A DNA stretch of 63,934 bases, filler included, from 4 parts of 4 records of this genome joined end to end with filler, not necessarily neighbours in it; one strand, 5' to 3'; shown: positions 6,078 to 49,124, numbered from the whole stretch's first letter. Notes: a model not told the origin generated them from the sequence alone. Numbers and translations: made by a program.

Positions 6078-7154
6078 TTAACCGCGCTTGCGGCCGGGGA
6101 GCACATCGCGAAGTTTATCGCGCATATCGCGCAGTGCAGCCTCAGTTTCCTCCCAACCGATGCAGCCGTCAGTGACTGATACGCCGTATTCGAGCTCAGA
6201 AAGGTCAGCCGGGATTTTTTGGTTGCCGGGCTTGATGTTACTTTCGATCATCAAACCGATAATCGAGGTGTTACCTTCGATGATCTGGTTAGTGACATTC
6301 TCCATAACCAGAGGCTGGAGGCTCGGTTGCTTGTTGGAGTTTGCGTGGCTGCAGTCCACCATAATATTGAGTGGGTATCCGGCTTTATCCAGGGCGGCCT
6401 CACACAATTTAATATGAACAGAGTCATAGTTAGGCCCGGCGCTACCGCCGCGCAATACCACATGGGCGTAACGGTTGCCGCGCGTGTGGATCACTGCCAC
6501 CTGGCCTTCGCCGTTAATACCGAGAAAACGGTGGGGTTTTACCGCTGAGCCGATAGCGTTCATGGCAACGTCTAAGCCGCCGTCGGTGCCGTTCTTAAAG
6601 CCGACGGCAGAAGACAGGCCGCTGGCCATTTCGCGGTGAGTCTGCGACTCGGTTGTTCTCGCACCAATCGCTGACCAGGAAATGCAATCCTGCAAATACT
6701 GAGGCGAAATAGGGTCCAGAGCTTCGGTTGAGGTCGGCAAGCCCAGCTCGGCGATATCCAGCAGCAATTTGCGGCCGATATGCAAACCCTCTTCAATTTT
6801 AAAGGTGTCGTTAAGGTAGGGGTCGTTGATCAAACCCTTCCAACCCACGGTAGTACGCGGTTTTTCAAAATACACGCGCATAACGATCACTAGCGTGTCT
6901 TGAAGCTCGTCAGCCAGCGTTTTCAAGCGCTGAGCATAATCCATGGCCAGTTCGACATCGTGAATGGAGCAGGGGCCAACCACAATAAACATGCGGTGGT
7001 CCTTGCCGTCCAGGATATTGCGCACGGTTTCGCGACCGGCAGAGACAACGGCTTTGGCGCTGTCGCTCATTGGCAGGGCCGCCTTCAGGCGCGCAGGAGT
7101 AATCAGCACTTCCTGTGCTTCGACATTAAGGTTTTCGATGATGGTTTCTGACAT
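6078..7154 (-). CDS. 3-deoxy-7-phosphoheptulonate (DAHP) synthase, class I (AroF/G/H family)
   Basis: GPCSIHD, RVYFEKPRTTVGWKG, IGARTTESQTHRE and DCSHANS motifs. Confidence 0.96.
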   Translation of the reverse strand: MSETIIENLNVEAQEVLITPARLKAALPMSDSAKAVVSAGRETVRNILDGKDHRMFIVVGPCSIHDVELAMDYAQRLKTLADELQDTLVIVMRVYFEKPRTTVGWKGLINDPYLNDTFKIEEGLHIGRKLLLDIAELGLPTSTEALDPISPQYLQDCISWSAIGARTTESQTHREMASGLSSAVGFKNGTDGGLDVAMNAIGSAVKPHRFLGINGEGQVAVIHTRGNRYAHVVLRGGSAGPNYDSVHIKLCEAALDKAGYPLNIMVDCSHANSNKQPSLQPLVMENVTNQIIEGNTSIIGLMIESNIKPGNQKIPADLSELEYGVSVTDGCIGWEETEAALRDMRDKLRDVLPGRKRG

Positions 7155-7291
7155 GGCTTACCGGATTCTGTCCCGAATCAAAACGTTATAGAGCCTGATA
7201 TTCTAACTGAAAAGCGTGCCAATAAAATATCAACTGGCGGTGAACAGGGCTAAAATAGCGGCTTTTCGACGAATAATTGCAAGAGTGCCCT

Positions 7292-7552
7292 ATGCCAACC
7301 GCTTTTCCATTGCTTTTCATGCTCGCGGTGTCAGCGCCTGTGGCGGCTGAGACGCCGACGGCACAGCCGCCAATAGAGCGTTGGTCGCCAGCGGTGCGCC
7401 CGGCGTCTGAGCCTGCGATCGCACAGTGGCCCTGCGACCGTCTCAGCGAGGTGACCGTTGTGAGTGATAAACAGCAGCGGCAATTGCGAGAGCGGAAAAA
7501 GCAATGCTTGCAACGCTACCAGCAATTTATTCCAGCGACGGGGCTGCGCTAG
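7292..7552 (+). CDS. Small hypothetical exported protein
   Basis: Signal-peptide-like N-terminus (LLFMLAVSAPVAA). The stop directly abuts the rlmD start. Confidence 0.5.
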   Translation: MPTAFPLLFMLAVSAPVAAETPTAQPPIERWSPAVRPASEPAIAQWPCDRLSEVTVVSDKQQRQLRERKKQCLQRYQQFIPATGLR

Positions 7553-8851
7553 ATGGCGACGATTTTCAAACCTTCGAAGCGCAATGCTCGCGCTAAACGC
7601 GCAACGCTTGCCGATAAGGGCGTGTTTGAGTTGCACATTGAGCGCTTGGCCGATGACGGCAGGGGCATCGCCCATCATAACAACAAGGTGGTGTTCGTCC
7701 TGGGCGCACTGCCTGGCGAGCGTGTGCAGGCGCGCTTGCTCAAGCGCCACAAGCGCTTCGATGAAGCAGAGAGTGTCCAGCTGTTGGCGGCGTCCGAGCA
7801 TCGAGTCGAACCGCCGTGTTCGCAGTACGGTCAGTGCGGGGGGTGTCAGCTCCAGCATTTGGCATACCCAGAGCAAGTTGAGCATAAGCGTTCACGCCTG
7901 TCAGCGATCATTGATGAGTGCGTTGATGTAGAGGTAATGGCTGGGCCGCCAGAGGCTTACCGCCACCGAGCGCGCTTGTCATACCGCGCGGGGCACCTGG
8001 GGTTCAAGGCAGCGGCGACCCACCATATTGTCGACACGACAGCCTGCTCAGTATTAGAGCCAGCGCTGAATGCGGCAATTGCTGCCGTTCGCGAGCCCTT
8101 GTTGCACGCGTTAAAACAGGGCCACCAGGCCGAATTGCTTTTTAGCCTGGGAGAGGGCGGCAGAGTCGGTTTGGCCGTTGAGGACAGTCGCCGCAGAAGC
8201 AGAGAGTGGAGCGAATCGTTAGCAAACGCCTTATTGCCAGCGGTGCAGCTGTATCAGGTACGTAGTTCGGACGGAATCTGGGTCAATGATTGCGAGCCGC
8301 TTCGCTACAGCAGCTCGGTTTCCCATGCCTTGCACTTTACGCCGACTGACTTCACCCAGGCTAACCGCGAGCTGAATACGCAGCTGGTCGAGCGCAGTGT
8401 AGCGTGGTTGGACGCGCAGGCCGGGGAATTCGTCATCGATTATTTCTGCGGGCTGGGCAATTTCAGCTTCCCCCTTGCCCAGTCGGGCGCCTCTGTGCTC
8501 GCGGTTGACGCCGGCGAGGAGATGTTGGCGCGGGCGCGGCAGCGGACGCAGGAGCAGGCATTAACCATTGAGTTTGCCTGCGCCGACCTGTTTGACTCGG
8601 CGCAGATTCCGCTTCGCCAGGCCAGCGCCGCCTTATTGGATCCTCCAAGGGCGGGCGCCAGGGCAGTGTGCGAAGCCATTGCTGGCTCACTATCGATGCG
8701 CAGGGTGGTGTATGTGTCGTGTGACCCCGCGACCTTGGCCCGCGATCTCGCAATTTTGTGTGAGGCGGGCTTCGAGATCAAAAAAGCGGCGATGGTAGAT
8801 ATGTTCCCGCATACCCACCATATGGAGTCGCTGATTTTGCTGGAGCGCTAG
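7553..8851 (+). CDS. rlmD: 23S rRNA m5U1939 methyltransferase (RlmD/TrmA family)
   Basis: TRAM domain, C-x5-CGGC Fe-S motif, DYFCGLGNF, LDPPRAG, YVSCDP and DMFPHTHH. Confidence 0.9.
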   Translation: MATIFKPSKRNARAKRATLADKGVFELHIERLADDGRGIAHHNNKVVFVLGALPGERVQARLLKRHKRFDEAESVQLLAASEHRVEPPCSQYGQCGGCQLQHLAYPEQVEHKRSRLSAIIDECVDVEVMAGPPEAYRHRARLSYRAGHLGFKAAATHHIVDTTACSVLEPALNAAIAAVREPLLHALKQGHQAELLFSLGEGGRVGLAVEDSRRRSREWSESLANALLPAVQLYQVRSSDGIWVNDCEPLRYSSSVSHALHFTPTDFTQANRELNTQLVERSVAWLDAQAGEFVIDYFCGLGNFSFPLAQSGASVLAVDAGEEMLARARQRTQEQALTIEFACADLFDSAQIPLRQASAALLDPPRAGARAVCEAIAGSLSMRRVVYVSCDPATLARDLAILCEAGFEIKKAAMVDMFPHTHHMESLILLER

Positions 8852-9168
8852 GCCATTTTTGCAATAATGTCCTGGGCATAGCGCAGCACGCCGTCGCGTT
8901 TTTTCACCGGGTCGTCGGTGTTGCCATGGTAGAACGGCCAGGGTTGAGTCAGGATATGGGTAATGCCATTGTCTTCGAGTTTGCGGTAGGCATCGGGGGT
9001 AAAGGCGTCTGACGGGGTCGCCATCACTGAGAACTGCTCGGGGTCGAATCCCTGCTCTTCACGGTAGCGGCGAATCAGTTTGACGGAGTCGATGATTTCG
9101 TCGCTGGTTTGTAAATCGCTCACCCAACCGTCGTGGCGGGCCGCGCGACGCATGGCCGCCTTACTGAT
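8848..9168 (-). CDS. LLM-class (luciferase-like) oxidoreductase, C-terminal fragment cut by contig end
   Basis: AMRRAARHDGW motif typical of LLM-class flavin/F420 oxidoreductases. Confidence 0.7.
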   Translation of the reverse strand: MSKAAMRRAARHDGWVSDLQTSDEIIDSVKLIRRYREEQGFDPEQFSVMATPSDAFTPDAYRKLEDNGITHILTQPWPFYHGNTDDPVKKRDGVLRYAQDIIAKMA

Positions 9169-9268
9169 NNNNNNNNNNNNNNNNNNNNNNNNNNNNNNNN
9201 NNNNNNNNNNNNTTAATTAATTAANNNNNNNNNNNNNNNNNNNNNNNNNNNNNNNNNNNNNNNNNNNN
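9169..9268. other. Artificial contig-joining spacer
   Basis: N44-TTAATTAATTAA-N44 (stops in all six frames), with an abrupt composition change across it. Confidence 0.98.
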
Positions 9269-9296
9269 GTCCTTGGTTCGAGCCCAAGAGGGGGAG
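9269..9296 (+). tRNA. tRNA 3' fragment (T-arm and acceptor strand), probably tRNA-Asn
   Basis: GTCCTTGGTTCGAGCCCAAGAGGGGGAG contains the T-loop GTTCGA. The acceptor 3' strand and discriminator G fit tRNA-Asn. The anticodon is not visible. Confidence 0.75.
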
Positions 9297-9303
9297 CAAA
9301 ATT

Positions 9304-9335
9304 AAGCCTTAACTATCTGTAGTTGAGGCTTTTTT
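9304..9335 (+). terminator. Terminator after the tRNA (probably bidirectional)
   Basis: AAGCCTTAACTA-TCTG-TAGTTGAGGCTT followed by a T-run. Confidence 0.7.
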
Positions 9336-9372
9336 GTTTTTGGAGGATTCGTTTTATCCAACCGTTTATCCA

Positions 9373-10710
9373 TCAAAAGGCTGAATACACACTATACGCA
9401 CAAAACAGAATGACAAAGCCGACGACTCCTTGGAGTAACGTGCCTAATGTGTGTTTGCGGTAGGCTTCCTTTACCGGCATTTCTCCCAGTTGACTTACGA
9501 TCCAGAAATACGAGTCATTAGCGTGCGAAACAGTAAGTGATCCTGCGCCTATGGCCATTATGACCCATACCTTGCCCATTTCAGAGTCAAAACCTAATGC
9601 GGGTAGTAACGGCAGCATTATAGAACTTATGGTGATGATTGCGACGGTAGATGAACCTTGAGCTGATTTGAGTAAAGCGGCCAATATAAAAGGAATCGCC
9701 AAGCCCAATCCATTACTGAAAGATTCTAAGTTGATCCCTTCAGTAAGGTTTGCGGTTTGAATAACGGTTCCTAAAGCACCGCCCATTGCAGTAATCAAGA
9801 GAATAGGAGCAGCTTGCGCCATTCCTTTTTTAATAATTTCAGAAATATCTCGTTGTTGTGTTTTACAGATGCTGAAGGCAACTAGTACACCGGCTAAAAG
9901 CGCAATGGCAGGATCTCCTAGAAATAGAAGTATATCGATGAATAGATTGGATCCTTCAAAAAACAATGGGATGATCGAAGCCGCTGCCATTAAGAGAATA
10001 GGGAGCGCTAAAGGCCAAATCGCTGCTGAAAACGAAGGGAGATCGGTGTCTTGGTTAAAATAGTTTTGAAGATTGTTACGATCAAAGGCATCCTGCTGAT
10101 TACTTTTTCTGAAAAAGTAAAACGAGAAAAATGCACCGATAAGCATCAGTACAAGGCCAAAAATTCCGCCTGCCAAAAGCAACAGATATAAATTTTCTAG
10201 CTGAAGGTTTCCAGCTGCGGCTAACGGTCCTGGTGTTGGTGGTACCAAAACGTGAGCAGAAAACAGTCCGGTGGAAAGCGCAACCGTTAAAGCGTTGCGC
10301 CGGGCGGTGTTATTGAGCGCCAGTTTTTTGGTCAACGGAGCCAAAATAACAAAAGCCGCATCGCAAAAAACAGGAATTGAAACCAGATAGCCCAAAGCAC
10401 TAATCACAAAAGGCAACGGTAGAATAGTCAGTTTTTTAATGATGCCTTTGGCAATTGCCGTGGTCGCGTTTGTTGTTTCTAAAGCAACGCCAATCCAAGC
10501 GCCAAAAAGAATCAGTAGGCCGATGTTTTTAAACATCGCTCCAAAACCGGTGCTTATCGTTTCCGGGATTTCTTCTAACGGAATCTGGAGGAGAAAGGCC
10601 AAACCTAAGGCGCTAATGAGCAACACAAAAAAGGGATGCCAGCGCAGGTAACTCGTACCTGCAATGATCCAAACAACAACGAGTACAATATAAATTAGAT
10701 CTAATTCCAT
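9373..10710 (-). CDS. GntP family permease
   Basis: Multiple TM segments plus SIPVFCD, HVLVPPTPGP, QGSSTVA and SHANDSYFW motifs. Confidence 0.93.
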   Translation of the reverse strand: MELDLIYIVLVVVWIIAGTSYLRWHPFFVLLISALGLAFLLQIPLEEIPETISTGFGAMFKNIGLLILFGAWIGVALETTNATTAIAKGIIKKLTILPLPFVISALGYLVSIPVFCDAAFVILAPLTKKLALNNTARRNALTVALSTGLFSAHVLVPPTPGPLAAAGNLQLENLYLLLLAGGIFGLVLMLIGAFFSFYFFRKSNQQDAFDRNNLQNYFNQDTDLPSFSAAIWPLALPILLMAAASIIPLFFEGSNLFIDILLFLGDPAIALLAGVLVAFSICKTQQRDISEIIKKGMAQAAPILLITAMGGALGTVIQTANLTEGINLESFSNGLGLAIPFILAALLKSAQGSSTVAIITISSIMLPLLPALGFDSEMGKVWVIMAIGAGSLTVSHANDSYFWIVSQLGEMPVKEAYRKHTLGTLLQGVVGFVILFCAYSVYSAF

Positions 10711-10712
10711 AA

Positions 10713-11840
10713 TTACAGTTCGGTGTTTAGGTGTTTTGCGACCGCAGTTTTAAGCAATGCAAAGGCGTTGCTTTTTGCATATTCCAGAGACATCGTTTCC
10801 GTTTTTATCGCGATAGCTTTGGTAATTCCGGAGGCGGTTAATACTTCTTGGTCTGCTTGAACACTTCCGGCAAAGAGGTAAAGCGGTTTGTGGTGTTTGC
10901 GCGCCAATTCTGCAAGTTTAAAAGGCACTTTGCCATACTGACTTTGATTATCGGTTTTTCCTTCTCCTGTGATGATCAAATCGGCTTGTTTTACGCGTTC
11001 TTCCAAGTTTGCCAGTTTGCTGAGCAATTCAAAGCCGGGCTCTAGTTTGCTGTTAAAGAAGCCAAACATTCCTGCGGAAGTGCCTCCGGCAGCGCCACCA
11101 CCGGTAATGCTCGTTATAGTCCTTCCTGTTTTTTGTTGAATTATTTGCGCTACATGTTCGGCACCTTGTTCTAGGGCTTTAACCTGCGCCGGCGTAGCAC
11201 CTTTTTGCGGAGCGTAGATCGTTGCTGCTCCCGTTGCGCCAAGCAGCAGGTTAGACACATCACAAGCCACTGTGATTTGCGCCGAAGCGATTTGGGGTAT
11301 GAGACTATCAAAATCAAGATCGGTTATAGTTTTGAGATGTGCTCCACAGGCTTGAACCGAGTTTTGGTTGCGGTCTAAAAGTTTTCCGCCTAAAGCGGTA
11401 AATATACCCGTCGCGGCATCATTTGTAGCGCTTCCACCAATGCCCAAAATTATATTTTGATAACCGTTTTCTAAAGCATGCTTCAGTTGTAATCCGGTGC
11501 CGAATGTAGATGTGCGCATAGGGTTTTTCTCTTCATCTTTTAAAAGCGCGATTCCTGAAGCTTGCGACAATTCGATCCACGCGGTTTTTCCATCTTTAAA
11601 TCCGTAGTAAGCAGCGGTTAAAGGTCGACCCAAAGGATCACAAACTTGACATTCAATTGTGTTTCCCAATTGCAATGCTTCAAAAAGTTCAAATGCACCC
11701 TCGCCACCGTCAGAAAACGGCAATAGATCTAGGTGTATGTGAGGGTTAATGCTTTGTAATCCTTCGGCGATTGCCTTGCAAACTTGTGTAGCGCTAAGAC
11801 TTTCTTTGAAGGAATCTGGTGCAATAAGAATTCTGGACAT
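10713..11840 (-). CDS. Glycerate kinase (GlxK/GarK family)
   Basis: IAPDSFKESL, SDGGEG, GIGGSATND and ITGEG motifs. Confidence 0.95.
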   Translation of the reverse strand: MSRILIAPDSFKESLSATQVCKAIAEGLQSINPHIHLDLLPFSDGGEGAFELFEALQLGNTIECQVCDPLGRPLTAAYYGFKDGKTAWIELSQASGIALLKDEEKNPMRTSTFGTGLQLKHALENGYQNIILGIGGSATNDAATGIFTALGGKLLDRNQNSVQACGAHLKTITDLDFDSLIPQIASAQITVACDVSNLLLGATGAATIYAPQKGATPAQVKALEQGAEHVAQIIQQKTGRTITSITGGGAAGGTSAGMFGFFNSKLEPGFELLSKLANLEERVKQADLIITGEGKTDNQSQYGKVPFKLAELARKHHKPLYLFAGSVQADQEVLTASGITKAIAIKTETMSLEYAKSNAFALLKTAVAKHLNTEL

Positions 11841-11893
11841 AAGATGGTGCTATAAGTGTCTCGTAGAAATTTAGTGTTTTTCTTGAAATAAAA

Positions 11894-11953
11894 TTTAAAT
11901 GTAAAGTTTGCTTTACATTTAAAAAAGTATACTTTTGTCAAGTAAACTTTACA
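11894..11953 (+). promoter_or_regulatory. Two TGTAAAG-N4-CTTTACA operators overlapping a Bacteroidota -33/-7 promoter
   Basis: Perfect 13-bp-arm palindrome at 11894-11923 and a second copy TGTCAAG-TAAA-CTTTACA at 11936-11953. TTTG at 11907-11910 and TAnnTTTG (TACTTTTG) at 11930-11937. Confidence 0.7.
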
Positions 11954-11973
11954 TTAATCAAAAATCAGATAGT

Positions 11974-12363
11974 ATGAATTCAAAATTTATTGCTTCAAGA
12001 AATCGTTTGGCTAAATGGTCTTTAGCTTGGGTATTTACAACTGCTCTGGTCACCTTTGGGTCACAGTTTTTATGGGATTCCCAAATCATTACAGTTTTAA
12101 GTATTAGTATTAGCCTTGCTGTTGGCGTTGGGATGGTGTTGGCCAATCGCAAATTTGTGAATGATGGAGATGAGTTGCAGCGCAAGATTCAATTAGAGTC
12201 TATGGCGCTTACTTTGGGGCTCGCGGTGGTTGTGGGCATCGCGTATTCTCAATTAGATACCACTAATCTCATTAAGGCTGACGCCGAAATTAGTGTACTC
12301 ATTCTCTTTATGGGGATTACTTATAGTTTTTGTGTGTTTTTCAATTCGCGTCGTTACTCATGA
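11974..12363 (+). CDS. Four-TM membrane protein coupled to an XRE regulator
   Basis: Four hydrophobic segments and DELQRKIQLE. The stop overlaps the ATG of the HTH gene. Confidence 0.8.
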   Translation: MNSKFIASRNRLAKWSLAWVFTTALVTFGSQFLWDSQIITVLSISISLAVGVGMVLANRKFVNDGDELQRKIQLESMALTLGLAVVVGIAYSQLDTTNLIKADAEISVLILFMGITYSFCVFFNSRRYS

Positions 12364-12560
12364 AAAATAATATTAAAACGTTACGCGCAGCATTTCAGCT
12401 TACGCAAAGTGATTTGGCTGAAAAAATAGAGGTTTCCCGTCAGACGGTTAACGCGATCGAAAAGGGTAAATTTGACCCTAGTTTGCCCACAGCTTTTAGG
12501 CTTGCTGCAGTTTTTAATTGTAGTATTGAAGAACTTTTTATTTATGAATCTGAAGAATAA
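12360..12560 (+). CDS. XRE-family HTH transcriptional regulator
   Basis: LTQSDLAEKIEVSRQTVNAIEKGKFDPSL. Confidence 0.93.
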   Translation: MKNNIKTLRAAFQLTQSDLAEKIEVSRQTVNAIEKGKFDPSLPTAFRLAAVFNCSIEELFIYESEE

Positions 12561-12569
12561 GAGCAATTT

Positions 12570-13268
12570 ATGCGCAACTTCTTAGTAAAGAATTTACCCA
12601 AAATACTAACAGCATTTGTCGTGCTTTGCGGTGTAGCTGCCTATTTTACACTGCCTGAAGTGCAGCATTTTTTAGATGAAGCTTGGCGGGTGCTTACCGG
12701 CGGTGACGAGCAGGAAATTAAAAATTGGGTAGATTCTTTTGGTTGGGCGGGTCCCGTTGTGCTGATCTTAGCGATGGTGATCCAGATGTTCTTAATAGTG
12801 ATACCTTCTATCGCGCTGATGGTTGTTTGCATTTTAGCTTACGGTCCTATCTGGGGAAGTTTACTGGTTGGGATTGCCATTAGCTGTGCTTCTACAGTGG
12901 GTTATTTTTTAGGCCGAAAGCTAGGCGATGGAGTAGTAAAAAACCTAGTAGGTGCTTCAACCGAAGATAAACTTGAGGATTTCCTTAACGATTACGGGTT
13001 TTGGGCAATTGCCATCACTAGGTTGAATCCGTTTTTATCTAATGACGCGATCAGTTTTGTAGCCGGAATTTTAAAGATGAATTATTTCAAATTTTTAGGC
13101 GCTACCCTTGCAGGAATTGCTCCGCTGACACTATTCATCGCGATTATGGGTGAAAGCACAGACGGACTCAAAAACGGACTGCTGTGGGGTTCTATAGTGA
13201 GTTTAGTTATTTTTCTAGGTTATGTTTTTTGGAGTAAAAAGCACAAGAAAAAGAAACAAAAGGCTTGA
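12570..13268 (+). CDS. TVP38/TMEM64 (DedA/VTT) family membrane protein
   Basis: RLNPFLSNDAISFVAG motif and TM segments. Confidence 0.9.
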   Translation: MRNFLVKNLPKILTAFVVLCGVAAYFTLPEVQHFLDEAWRVLTGGDEQEIKNWVDSFGWAGPVVLILAMVIQMFLIVIPSIALMVVCILAYGPIWGSLLVGIAISCASTVGYFLGRKLGDGVVKNLVGASTEDKLEDFLNDYGFWAIAITRLNPFLSNDAISFVAGILKMNYFKFLGATLAGIAPLTLFIAIMGESTDGLKNGLLWGSIVSLVIFLGYVFWSKKHKKKKQKA

Positions 13269-13280
13269 GTTGTAGGTGTT

Positions 13281-13643
13281 CTACCAAAGTTTTAAAAACA
13301 GCAATAGGGCAAGAATGATCAGATTATAAAACACAAATTCAGAAAGTAGAAAACCGGTAAAAAATCCTCTAAATCTTCCGGTATATTGATCGATCCCTTT
13401 TGAAGTTTTAGTATAAAACGACTCAAAGGGCCAAAAACCATCTTGATCCTGCAAAAATCCCCCAACTTGTGACAGTGAAGATTTTGTACCGGGTTCCCTA
13501 TCTGTAAATAAGAATATTTCAAAAGTTTCTCGCTCAGAAACCGCTTGTATTTTCGGCGAAATTCCAAAATAATTTACGCCAAAGGCAATGCAATTAAAAC
13601 CAATTAACGAAATGGTAAGCCGTAGTATGAGCGATTGATTCAC
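13281..13643 (-). CDS. Hypothetical membrane protein
   Basis: 120-aa ORF with N- and C-terminal hydrophobic helices that fills the gap between genes. Confidence 0.55.
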   Translation of the reverse strand: MNQSLILRLTISLIGFNCIAFGVNYFGISPKIQAVSERETFEIFLFTDREPGTKSSLSQVGGFLQDQDGFWPFESFYTKTSKGIDQYTGRFRGFFTGFLLSEFVFYNLIILALLLFLKLW

Positions 13644-13790
13644 GTTTTAATTTTTCCCAAATGTACTGGTCGGGATTTAGGCAGAGTAGGGGAATTTCCC
13701 CCAATATATAGTTTTGTTTAGGGGAATGTATGTCATTATAATTTGTCACTTCAAGTTGATGTGTTTTCTTTGCTGTTAAGTTTTAAACTC

Positions 13791-14558
13791 ATGAGAAAGT
13801 TTTTTGCATATCCGCTTAGTGTGATTTTTTATCTTGCTTTTGGTTTGACCATTTGTATTTTTCACCCCGTGCAATGGGTGTGCTATAATTGGTTTGGTTA
13901 TCAGGCGCATAAAAAGAGTGTAGATTATCTTAATTTCTGCATTTTAAAGTGTCTGAATCTTTTGGGAACGCGCTTTACTTTTGAAAACCCATACACTATA
14001 AAACGCGATCAGCCCATAATCATCGTTGCTAACCATCAGGGGCAATGGGATATTTCACCTATAATCTGGTATCTGCGACGCCTGCATCCCAAATTCATTA
14101 GTAAAATTGAATTAGGAAAAGGTATTCCCAGCATCTCGTATAATTTGAGAAAGGGAGGTTCGGCATTGATTGATCGTAAAGACAAGCGCCAATCTATTAT
14201 GGCGATTCGTGATCTCACCAAAACTTTAAATAAAACCAACAGATCTGTGGTTATTTTTCCTGAAGGAACGCGCAGCAAAGATGGAATCCCAAAACAGTTT
14301 GCCACAGGTGGTTTGGTAACGCTTTTTAAATTTATGCCTGATGCGATTGTCGTGCCGGTTACTATTAACAATTCGTGGAAATTAATGCGCTGGGGCGGAT
14401 TTCCGCAGGACATAGGAGTACACGTAAAGCATACGGTTCATAAACCTATTCCGGTTGCTGGGACCGCACCTGAAGAACTGGTAAAACAAGTACAAGATAT
14501 TGTGCTGGCTGATTTTCCCAGAATTAAAGAGCATACCCGAAAATCAAAATTGATTTAA
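13791..14558 (+). CDS. plsC: 1-acyl-sn-glycerol-3-phosphate acyltransferase
   Basis: NHQ-x3-D and FPEGTRS motifs. Confidence 0.9.
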   Translation: MRKFFAYPLSVIFYLAFGLTICIFHPVQWVCYNWFGYQAHKKSVDYLNFCILKCLNLLGTRFTFENPYTIKRDQPIIIVANHQGQWDISPIIWYLRRLHPKFISKIELGKGIPSISYNLRKGGSALIDRKDKRQSIMAIRDLTKTLNKTNRSVVIFPEGTRSKDGIPKQFATGGLVTLFKFMPDAIVVPVTINNSWKLMRWGGFPQDIGVHVKHTVHKPIPVAGTAPEELVKQVQDIVLADFPRIKEHTRKSKLI

Positions 14559-25748: not shown

Positions 25749-25848
25749 NNNNNNNNNNNNNNNNNNNNNNNNNNNNNNNNNNNNNNNNNNNNTTAATTAA
25801 TTAANNNNNNNNNNNNNNNNNNNNNNNNNNNNNNNNNNNNNNNNNNNN
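25749..25848. other. Artificial contig-joining spacer
   Basis: N44-TTAATTAATTAA-N44. Confidence 0.98.
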
Positions 25849-47333: not shown

Positions 47334-47768
47334 ATGACCATCGACCAAATTCTGAAAGACAAGGGATTCGCCATCATTTCGGTGAAGGCCGGCGAAACAT
47401 TGGCGGCCGCAGCCCGCACGCTGGATGGTAAGCGAATCGGCGCGGTGGTCGCGTTGGACGATGATGGCACCATCATCGGCGTATTGTCTGAGCGGGATAT
47501 TGTGCGCCATGTGGCGCGTCAGGGTGCCATGGCGCTGGAATTGAACGTTGGCGACGCGATGACACGCGACGTGATCAAGGTCGAATCGACCACCAAGATA
47601 GATGACGCGTTGCAGCTTATGACCGACAGGAGGATTCGTCATTTGCCCGTCATGACAGACGGACGCCTCGTCGGGGTGATCTCGATCGGGGATCTGGTGA
47701 AGTGGAAGATCGCTGAAACGGAAGCTGAAGCAGAAGCGATGAAATCGTACCTGTCCGCTCAGTATTAG
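47334..47768 (+). CDS. CBS domain-containing protein
   Basis: GVLSERDIV, RIRHLPV and SIGDLVK. Confidence 0.93.
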   Translation: MTIDQILKDKGFAIISVKAGETLAAAARTLDGKRIGAVVALDDDGTIIGVLSERDIVRHVARQGAMALELNVGDAMTRDVIKVESTTKIDDALQLMTDRRIRHLPVMTDGRLVGVISIGDLVKWKIAETEAEAEAMKSYLSAQY

Positions 47769-47874
47769 GGGGCAGCCCCCGTATTCATTGGGCTTTTGGG
47801 ATTGGCCGGCAGGAAGCCGCGACAAGCTTCCGTCTTTTTCCTGCAGTTTTGTGATGAATTCCTGCATTAGGGGG

Positions 47875-47903
47875 TTGCCGCATCCGGGGGGCGGGGGTAC
47901 ATC
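47875..47903 (+). promoter_or_regulatory. rrn promoter copy 1
   Basis: TTGCCG-N17-TACATC followed by a GC-rich discriminator. Confidence 0.6.
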
Positions 47904-48131
47904 GCCACCTCCGCTGACGAGGCCTTCGGGTTTCAGACGCGGGGCCCGGTAACGGCGCACCTGATTGGTTCGGAAGTTTTCTAATCTTCCCCAGACAGAG
48001 CTCGATATCGGTTCCCTGAAAATCGCTCGGATCTGCGAGCCGGACATGTTCGGCCAACGGGATCTTTTGCGCTGTAAACATAGCAGGATGGATGGTTGAA
48101 CATTCTACTGCACACAGCGCAGAAAAGGGTG

Positions 48132-48160
48132 TTGACGGGAAGAACGGCGGTCCATATAAG
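48132..48160 (+). promoter_or_regulatory. rrn promoter copy 2
   Basis: TTGACG-N17-TATAAG-CCGCC. Confidence 0.85.
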
Positions 48161-48383
48161 CCGCCACTCGCTGACGAGTTCTACGGATCTCTGGGGCGGC
48201 CCGGCACCGGGTTCTCTGAATGGCTTGGAAGTTTCTATTCTTCCCCAATCAGAGCGTCGATGTCGGTTCCTCGAAACGCTCGAATTTGCGGGCCGGATGA
48301 TTTCGGCAGGCTGGTTCATTTGCGCCAAAATTGAAGCGGAAACGGTGCCTGGCACCTAACTGCAGAAGAGGCGGAAAAGAGTG

Positions 48384-48412
48384 TTGACGGGAAGAAGGGC
48401 GGTCCATATAAG
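48384..48412 (+). promoter_or_regulatory. rrn promoter copy 3
   Basis: TTGACG-N17-TATAAG-CCGCC. Confidence 0.85.
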
Positions 48413-48642
48413 CCGCCCCTTCCGCAGACGACGCCCTCGGGCATCTGAAGCGGGCCCGCTGAAAAGCTCACCTGATTGGTGAAAAAGTTCTTGAACTTTT
48501 CGTCGAACAGGGGCTATATATGCGGTTCCTCGAAACGCTCGAATTTGCGAGCCGGATCTTTTCGGCAAGTGGTTCTTTTGCGCTTAAATTGATGCGGGAA
48601 CGGTGGTTAAACACTCAACTGCAGAAGGCGCGAAAAAGAGTG

Positions 48643-48671
48643 TTGACGGGCTAAGCGGCGGCCCATATAAG
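48643..48671 (+). promoter_or_regulatory. rrn promoter copy 4 (proximal)
   Basis: TTGACG-N17-TATAAG-CCGCC. Confidence 0.88.
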
Positions 48672-48730
48672 CCGCCTCTTCCGGACGGGCCCACGGGCTT
48701 CTGATGGAGACCTTCGGAGCTTCGGTTCCA

Positions 48731-48745
48731 GCTGTTTGACATCGT
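48731..48745 (+). promoter_or_regulatory. boxA-like antitermination element of the rrn leader
   Basis: GCTGTTTGACATCGT, about 60 nt downstream of the proximal promoter. Confidence 0.7.
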
Positions 48746-48976
48746 AAGAGATTAGGAAGAGAAACGCAGGCGGCGTGATGGCTTGCGGACACGGGCTTCG
48801 GCCACGGTCCAAACGATCGCGACGGATGCGTTTCTTAAGAGAAAATTCTTTTTCCATCGGTTGGGTTTCGGCCCGGCCTTTGTGACTAAGGGTTTCTCGT
48901 CAAAGAACGCAATACTTGATGCTTAACAGCTAAAGTAGCCGTCCATATTCCAATGGATGGTATCGTCAGATCAACT

Positions 48977-49024
48977 CAACTTGAGAGTTTGATTCTGGCT
49001 CAGAACGAACGCTGGCGGCAGGCT
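48977..49024 (+). rRNA. rrs: 16S rRNA, 5' end (cut by contig end)
   Basis: CAACTTGAGAGTTTGATTCTGGCTCAGAACGAACGCTGGCGGCAGGC, an alphaproteobacterial-type 5' end. Confidence 0.97.
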
Positions 49025-49124
49025 NNNNNNNNNNNNNNNNNNNNNNNNNNNNNNNNNNNNNNNNNNNNTTAATTAATTAANNNNNNNNNNNNNNNNNNNN
49101 NNNNNNNNNNNNNNNNNNNNNNNN
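49025..49124. other. Artificial contig-joining spacer
   Basis: N44-TTAATTAATTAA-N44. Confidence 0.98.

Follow-up and report, generated by a model that had tools for sequence, protein, structure and literature searches.

The region at positions 47904-48642 of the window, by which we mean the whole stretch of 63,934 nt that was analysed, is probably a series of amplified tandem rrn promoters with cis-acting, self-folding leader modules upstream of a single rRNA operon. This reading is built on the architecture of the region, its conservation and copy-number variation among relatives, sense-strand pairing kept by compensatory change, and the joining of the array to 16S in RNA libraries. A sequence-only reading of this DNA had offered two origins for its structured repeats, RNAs of ~220 nt released from the pre-rRNA leader or self-contained folding modules of a long leader, and we adopt the latter as the best reading.

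Source and setting of the array

The window consists of four contigs joined by N...TTAATTAATTAA...N linkers (9169-9268, 25749-25848 and 49025-49124). The pieces alternate between a G+C of ~0.53-0.65 and one of ~0.33-0.44, which makes it likely that two or more organisms are mixed in the assembly. Judging from the relatives of its CBS-domain protein, the contig that carries 47904-48642 belongs to Hyphomonas, a marine bacterium; among named public records the closest relative of the protein is that of Hyphomonas sp. L-53-1-40 (99% amino-acid identity). A CBS gene followed by rrn is an arrangement conserved in Hyphomonadaceae, as seen with the relatives in Hyphomonas and Hyphomonadaceae records. 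The reference for comparison was the nearest genome, 98% identical over the region (G001), together with its relatives. The 16S gene was single-copy in all five Hyphomonas genomes searched, three of which are single-contig.

Three units of ~225 nt, each followed by a consensus promoter, occupy 47904-48642 just 5' of 16S. The features of the locus, all on the + strand, are as follows.

25849-49024: contig piece with the array, ending 48 nt into the 16S rRNA gene
47334-47768, +: CBS-domain gene, upstream neighbour of rrn (ORF)
47812-47840, +: terminator-like hairpin with T-run that ends the CBS gene transcript (terminator scan; RNA contigs stop at 47860 in run X17 and at 47888 in run X20)
47875-47903, +: Pd, distal weak promoter-like box TTGCCG-17-TACATC (sequence inspection; homologous box in relatives)
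47904-48131, +: unit 1, structured leader module (covariance-model match, 121 bits)
48132-48160, +: strong promoter copy 1, TTGACG-17-TATAAG (repeat and motif searches)
48161-48383, +: unit 2, structured leader module (covariance-model match, 107.5 bits)
48384-48412, +: strong promoter copy 2, TTGACG-17-TATAAG (repeat and motif searches)
48413-48642, +: unit 3, orthologue of the single-copy unit of other species (tree, structure model, covariation)
48491-48520, +: Pi, internal promoter-like box TTGAAC-18-TATATA (in unit 3 only; one per locus)
48643-48671, +: strong promoter copy 3, the proximal (main) rrn promoter Pp, TTGACG-17-TATAAG (repeat and motif searches)
48672-48976, +: proximal pre-16S leader, with a P1-like hairpin with CACG cap at 48687-48700
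48716-48729, +: hairpin GGAGC-UUCG-GUUCC in the proximal leader (sequence)
48731-48744, +: boxA-like motif GCTGTTTGACATCG (single match in the rrn region)
48977-49024, +: initial 48 nt of the 16S rRNA gene, where the contig ends (partial match to Rfam RF00177; N-linker from 49025)

The repeat search found a 72-nt family in three copies, spaced 252 and 259 nt apart and 78-83% identical, and further repeat families in the same register. The array escaped Tandem Repeats Finder, as fits copies that are only ~70-78% alike.

Promoter boxes

As in tandem promoters of the P1/P2 type, the boxes have sigma-70-type hexamers at 16-18 nt spacing and lie in rrn orientation upstream of 16S. The generic promoter scan of the window detected none of them, because it demands T at the last -10 position. 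In Hyphomonas loci the proximal promoter was 329-353 nt 5' of 16S, and a Pd-homologous box, GGTTGCGG..TATYYC, was located 251-261 nt 5' of the first strong promoter (41/42 loci matching the pattern). Across the family, an A-tract and a CTGCAGAAG motif are conserved between about -65 and -40 relative to the strong promoter. All promoters in the array presumably fire.

Pi is a third, predicted promoter-like box. Its general form is TTGNNN, 18 nt, (C/T)TAT(A/G)T(A/G), which we take to resemble the Caulobacter housekeeping promoter consensus. It was found once per locus in 60 of the 63 loci compared, 145-161 nt 5' of a strong promoter; it overlaps helix P3, and in other genera it lies directly 3' of the CBS gene. 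The conserved block with CGGTTCCYYGAAA, proposed earlier as a boxA-like site, turned out instead to be the -10 and the initial transcribed part of Pi, with CGGTTCC just after it. An ORF that starts from an ATG inside the Pi -10 was also considered. It is open for 40-47 codons in some species, stops after 5-37 in others and is missing from 11 of 42 rows, and was therefore rejected; the units contain no conserved ORF.

Helices of the units

An eight-helix model (P1-P8) was built from unit 3 with the inspection of orthologues as a guide. Its coordinates in units 1 and 3 are given below.

Unit 1, +: P1 47911-47942; P4 48026-48039; P5 48040-48053; P6 48065-48072/48117-48124; P7 48083-48086/48108-48111; P8 48091-48104
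Unit 3, +: P1 48422-48453; P2 48458-48467; P3 48469-48512 (CUUG loop); P4 48538-48551; P5 48552-48565; P6 48576-48583/48628-48635; P7 48594-48597/48619-48622; P8 48602-48615

Each hairpin that the sequence-only reading had listed for the units was found where it had been placed, by sequence and by helix coordinates. The 5' hairpin (47911-47942, 48168-48199 and 48422-48453) carries the C(YNCG)G caps TTCG, TACG and CTCG, and the fourth cap, CACG, belongs to the final leader (48687-48700). The stem GGAAG/CTTCC of units 1 and 2 is AAAAGTT/AACTTTT in unit 3, the GCTCG/CG(A/G)GC and CCGGA/TTCGG hairpins are present in all three units, and the closing stem P6 encloses GCRG/CTGC and ends ~8 nt before the next -35. 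Tetraloops that look stable (YNCG, CUUG and GNRA-like) cap the helices. At 72% identity to unit 3, unit 1 retains 49 of the 53 model pairs; unit 2, at 70% identity, retains 45 of 52 with 9 double changes. A covariance-model search of the 64-kb window matched only these three units, with no copies elsewhere in it.

The only strongly conserved unpaired stretch in the units is the Pi box with the sequence after it, and the loops vary. This pattern points to a generic structural role and argues against a specific ligand or protein site. At the end of the unit, P6 is followed by an A-rich tract and no GC-rich hairpin with a U-run is seen; the terminator-scan matches at 48207-48228 and 48537-48552 are internal hairpins that lack a proper U-run and are not kept in orthologues. 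A 12-nt palindrome, AGCGGGCCCGCT, at 48449-48460 of unit 3 overlaps the 3' strand of P1, and its pairing competes with P1 and P2. The units' G/C content, 28.5% vs 26.4%, is too close for any statement on Rho.

Pairing is maintained in RNA of the rrn-sense strand

The earlier claim of compensatory changes between copies was borne out on a much wider set of sequences, in which all eight helices keep pairing across orthologues and paralogues against shuffled controls. In the alignment fitted to the model (72 distinct rows), 90.2% of cells paired, compared with 75.1% after shuffling and 41-47% with slid partners, double changes were seen at 52 of 55 pairs, and none of 500 shuffles reached the observed value for any of the five measures. 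The structure was derived in part from the tested sequences and alignments A3-A5 were fitted to it, and both biases favour structure. Because the fitted alignment leans to the model, the count was redone on a structure-blind MAFFT alignment of 60 full units and 39 pairs. There 87.1% of cells paired (78.5% shuffled, 40-51% slid), double-change cells numbered 188 against 69.7, and the covariation score was 0.324 against 0.188. On this alignment the two strict measures were not significant, namely the pairs with a double change (20 vs 17.9 shuffled, 79/500) and the pair types (56 vs 57 shuffled, 379/500).

G-U cells exceeded A-C cells by 273:70 in the structure-blind alignment and by 363:112 in the fitted one. 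The excess indicates that pairing takes place in RNA of the rrn-sense strand, not in DNA or antisense RNA, and together with the covariation it upholds the view that RNA pairing is itself selected, in addition to promoter DNA. Upstream paralogues that are 54-72% identical to unit 3 keep 87-94% of the pairs with 3-17 double changes each, and P8 and the inner stem of P1 each occur in 14 fully paired variants. The hairpins also persist in duplicates whose promoter -10 has decayed; RNA-level pairing is under selection in every copy, these included.

Support differs among the helices. In 16 distinct sequences of other genera, P4-P8 pair in 79-100% of cells with covariation, while P1-P3 are poorly supported and the middle of P3 pairs in 60%; in the fitted alignment itself the middle of P3 reaches just 79%. 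For P2 there are rival pairings, among them a long-range helix to GCGG after the Pi -10, and for P4 there is GAAUUU/AAAUUC flanking P5 (P4'); these were seen both in single-sequence folds and with alifold. The remaining helices are out of register in the plain MAFFT alignment, and RNAalifold therefore returned just P1 and P4 from it; an all-against-all column-pair scan was too unspecific for use.

Folding energies were less telling. An energy no better than that of dinucleotide-shuffled sequences had been named beforehand as evidence against selected structure, and the values came close to it: the MFE z-scores of the three window units were -1.95, -1.15 and -1.32, and 9, 25 and 26 of 200 shuffles folded at least as well. 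Those of the opposite strand were similar (-1.12, -1.50 and -1.98). Within the window alone the structural evidence is thin, but with the orthologues the pairing is clearly maintained.

Distribution of the element

A first covariance model, made from four near-identical sequences and run against 65 sources, gave 73 matches, all in rrn orientation and all between the CBS gene and 16S. A second model, made from 43 diverse units, found the element in all 28 Hyphomonas genomes. Among the matches listed, those in Hyphomonas lay at one locus per genome (in one genome, G011, split over two contig ends), and the copies elsewhere that would mark a dispersed repeat or mobile element (REP, MITE) were absent from the 28 genomes. 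In other genera of the Hyphomonadaceae the second model had weaker matches, in 41 of the 123 genomes searched, and in five further families of the order (96 genomes) it had none. Among the matches listed, a single weak one, at 2470559-2470692 of contig C1 of genome G044 (24.8 bits, E 4e-4), was far from the main cluster of its genome.

The element appears to be new to the databases, as the earlier reading had supposed. Rfam 15 gave no match at the gathering score in the whole window, and at E ≤5 the region 47780-49024 gave only the 16S fragment and two chance miRNA matches (E >2). A literature search, made over titles and abstracts and with few subscription journals covered, returned no paper on the rrn promoters of Hyphomonas, nor one describing a structured motif 5' of 16S in Hyphomonadaceae.

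Copy number and history of the array

To place the array among its relatives, we compared the CBS-16S intergenic regions of related loci, 63 distinct sequences with a recognisable strong promoter. One strong promoter was found in 45 loci, two in 5, three in 10 and four in 3; the window belongs to the ten three-promoter loci, as do four near-identical relatives. Where Hyphomonas has a single promoter, the ~255 nt 5' of it are homologous to the unit of the window and start with the weak distal box. The unit is therefore a standing segment between promoters, present once upstream of rrn in most Hyphomonas and here amplified along with the promoter, and the suggestion of an array of ncRNA genes was abandoned.

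Repeat periods fell into classes of 136-140, 150-151, 194-196 and 249-259 nt. In the arrays with shorter periods (136-196 nt) the promoter recurs together with P4-P8 alone, the 3' half of the unit; what is duplicated throughout is thus the promoter, not a fixed RNA. The duplication junctions fall either at CGGTTCC or within the homologous stretch that directly follows the -10 of Pi and Pp, from which we infer amplification by unequal recombination between paralogous promoter regions. In a tree of 58 distinct units, unit 3 of the window grouped with the single-copy units of other species, and units 1 and 2 fell in a separate clade (support 98/98) that is common to H. atlantica and two further genomes, so the array is older than those splits. 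All three promoters are fully consensus in all 8 rows of this clade. Arrays of 150 nt occur in two different clades, which brings the number of independent amplifications to at least five.

Three loci of another Hyphomonadaceae genus (L103, L104 and L105) have an internal-type box right after the CBS gene, ~700 nt before 16S, then two P4-P8-like modules of ~155 nt, with a non-consensus -10 in the upstream promoter copy (TGTAGAG or TGTACTG). This suggests that promoter copies are born and decay in other genera as well. Two loci labelled as an Acidobacteriota MAG (Candidatus Sulfopaludibacter; L059) and a Rhodobacterales MAG (L057) carry a typical Hyphomonas CBS-rrn locus. Their units nest inside Hyphomonas in the unit tree, and the contigs are probably mis-binned or mislabelled.

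Final leader and RNA contigs

We call the motif at 48731-48744 boxA-like because it resembles the E. coli consensus. It does not vary in the consensus of 49 proximal leaders, and a search of 47904-48642 that tolerated up to 3 mismatches gave no match.

Six metatranscriptome runs contain 77-82% of the sampled words of the stretch, and four of them, from four studies (X15, X17, X19 and X20), were examined. Contigs from such runs reveal neither the ends nor the strand nor the level of an RNA, and some DNA may be among them. In X17 one contig covers 47925-49023 at a depth of 74.4, and the contig of the CBS gene ends at 47860 with a depth of 5.1; loose letters before 47925 are presumably the end of a sequencing adaptor. 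In X20 a contig covers 47918-49023 at a depth of 172.2, and another ends at 47888 with a depth of 22.8. Both array contigs are continuous through all units into 16S and start 8-17 nt after the predicted Pd start. They hint weakly at use of the distal promoter and at an array that belongs to a long pre-rRNA leader, and are uninformative on the other promoters. The stretches without RNA cover between them and the upstream contigs, 47861-47924 in X17 and 47889-47917 in X20, are likewise no more than a weak hint. The contigs of X15 and X19 also span the upstream genes and, with DNA carry-over or read-through possible, speak neither for nor against a start at Pd.

In X19, short contigs with a depth of 7,000-14,000, compared with 346 over the units, begin at 48794-48849, 130-180 nt before mature 16S; a leader processing site that yields a 16S precursor may lie there. 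Single-base differences to the window at 48194, 48418, 48721 and 48876 recur in three or four runs, with G>A at 48194 in all four, and the environmental population is slightly unlike the assembled sequence.

Discussion

In the reading that we favour, each module combines a strong sigma-70-type promoter with a transcribed spacer of ~225 nt that would fold into about eight helices. The ancestral order in Hyphomonas would be Pd, one spacer carrying Pi, Pp, a leader with the boxA-like motif, and 16S. In the lineage of the window, unequal recombination between paralogous promoter regions may have produced three spacers and three consensus Pp, with up to five promoters in series as the outcome, all reading into 16S. 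Promoters stacked in this way could raise or tune the rRNA output of a genome with one rrn operon. Rho requires unstructured RNA, and 5' hairpins protect transcripts. The hairpins would accordingly be pictured as acting in cis and without specificity: they would give each transcript a 5'-terminal stem-loop and compact the long, untranslated, boxA-less leader, which might then be a poor substrate for Rho and RNases and would not mispair with nascent 16S before it is finally cut off and discarded. This protective role against Rho, RNase and mispairing is conjectural.

We weighed several other explanations. It is unlikely, in our estimate, that the unit is excised or trimmed into a stable trans-acting ncRNA of ~220-250 nt, with the array as a dosage series that tracks rRNA synthesis. 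The stable-looking tetraloop caps, the long-range closing stem P6, the retention of the structure in every copy and the depth of the array contig, which in two runs exceeds that of the adjacent mRNA contig 7- to 15-fold, would suit such an RNA. Against it, the scan found no terminator-like end before the next promoter, the RNA contigs run unbroken across all units into 16S, and in X19 the depth over the units is ~40-fold lower than over the pre-16S part; other lineages duplicated the 3' half of the unit alone, and the loops and unpaired parts are unconserved except for the promoter box, unlike those of a trans-acting RNA with a seed or a protein site. Even less probable is a regulatory switch, an attenuator or ligand sensor, for upstream transcripts that enter the operon or for the firing of the next promoter. 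Mutually exclusive pairings of the kind that a switch needs can indeed be drawn (P2 against the long-range helix, P4 against GAAUUU/AAAUUC, and the palindrome at 48449-48460), but a conserved unpaired core is absent outside the promoter box, no hairpin-plus-U-run terminator was found by the scan, and the RNA contigs show read-through.

The complementarity might instead serve DNA, as activating or factor sites or as hairpins extruded in supercoiled promoter DNA, with the RNA fold as a by-product. The conserved A-tract and the motif fall on the 3' strands of P6 and P7, the region upstream of the promoter is kept in every amplification, and Pi overlaps P3. The stems, however, vary and yet stay paired, unlike a protein site, and the 3-4 to 1 excess of G-U over A-C makes sense only for rrn-sense RNA, so we give this explanation a slim chance. 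That the units are young, decaying duplicates free of selection, whose hairpins are merely inherited, is disfavoured and very improbable: the energy z-scores near those of shuffles and the decayed -10 boxes in some upstream promoter copies of other lineages agree with it, but the upstream units form an old clade common to three species groups, keep 87-94% of the pairs through double changes at 54-72% identity, and come with three promoters that are fully consensus throughout that clade.

A bolder version of the favoured reading, which we regard as speculative and improbable as it stands, is that the folded spacers are an unrecognised class of promoter-coupled cis RNA modules that make promoter stacking workable. 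P6, closing just before the next -35, would stop backtracking and shield polymerase from Rho across an occupied downstream promoter; in a variant, excised modules would persist as stable RNAs that report rRNA synthesis. If this were true, Hyphomonadaceae could scale rRNA output by copying promoter-plus-module cassettes rather than whole operons.

The locus shares several features with known rrn systems. As in E. coli rrn P1/P2, at least two sigma-70 promoters stand in series before 16S, an A-rich tract precedes the -35, and the -10 is followed by a GC-rich stretch. As in the E. coli leader (boxB, boxA, boxC; hA, hB), hairpins precede a boxA-like motif and leader helices are variable. Unlike in E. 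coli, the inter-promoter RNA of Hyphomonas is ~110-225 nt long with 5-8 covarying helices conserved across the genus or family, the promoter-plus-spacer module varies from 1 to 4 copies between species, and the repeated units are without the boxA-like motif. In E. coli the leader helices are described as dispensable for 30S assembly (PMC10250234). In mycobacterial rrnA, M. tuberculosis has two tandem promoters and M. chelonae has five (PMC10218544). The mycobacterial rrnA region (HMPR) is similar in that a genome has one or two rrn operons, the number of tandem promoters differs by species, and the region is flanked by a conserved gene on its upstream side and by a conserved boxA leader; as far as the accessible text of that article goes, no conserved multi-helix fold is described there for the segments between promoters. 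The phylum and the sequences are unrelated, and in Hyphomonas, unlike in HMPR, the periods and junctions point to recombination between paralogous promoter boxes.

HK022 put and Bacillus EAR are structured cis RNAs that make RNA polymerase termination-resistant. By analogy, they offer the bolder version a possible model of a structured nascent RNA just 3' of a promoter that acts in cis on the polymerase that made it. The units differ from them in having no Rfam match, and no terminators are known in the Hyphomonas leader. By comparison with the known rrn systems, the features that look new are a covarying multi-helix inter-promoter RNA, amplification as a cassette, and recurrent amplifications with different periods.

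In bacteria with a single rrn operon, all ribosome synthesis depends on one control region. Hyphomonas and its relatives provide a natural series of close species with 1, 2, 3 or 4 consensus rrn promoters, arisen at least 5 times, in which each promoter copy is tied to an RNA fold that selection retains even after the promoter has decayed. This makes it testable whether promoter stacking raises rRNA output or growth rate, how upstream polymerases pass downstream promoters, and what a long leader needs to survive before the boxA-like motif. Few structured pre-rRNA leader elements have been described in bacteria, and the units constitute a well-supported candidate family, with a core of ~110 nt (P4-P8) in Hyphomonadaceae and a full length of ~225 nt in Hyphomonas.
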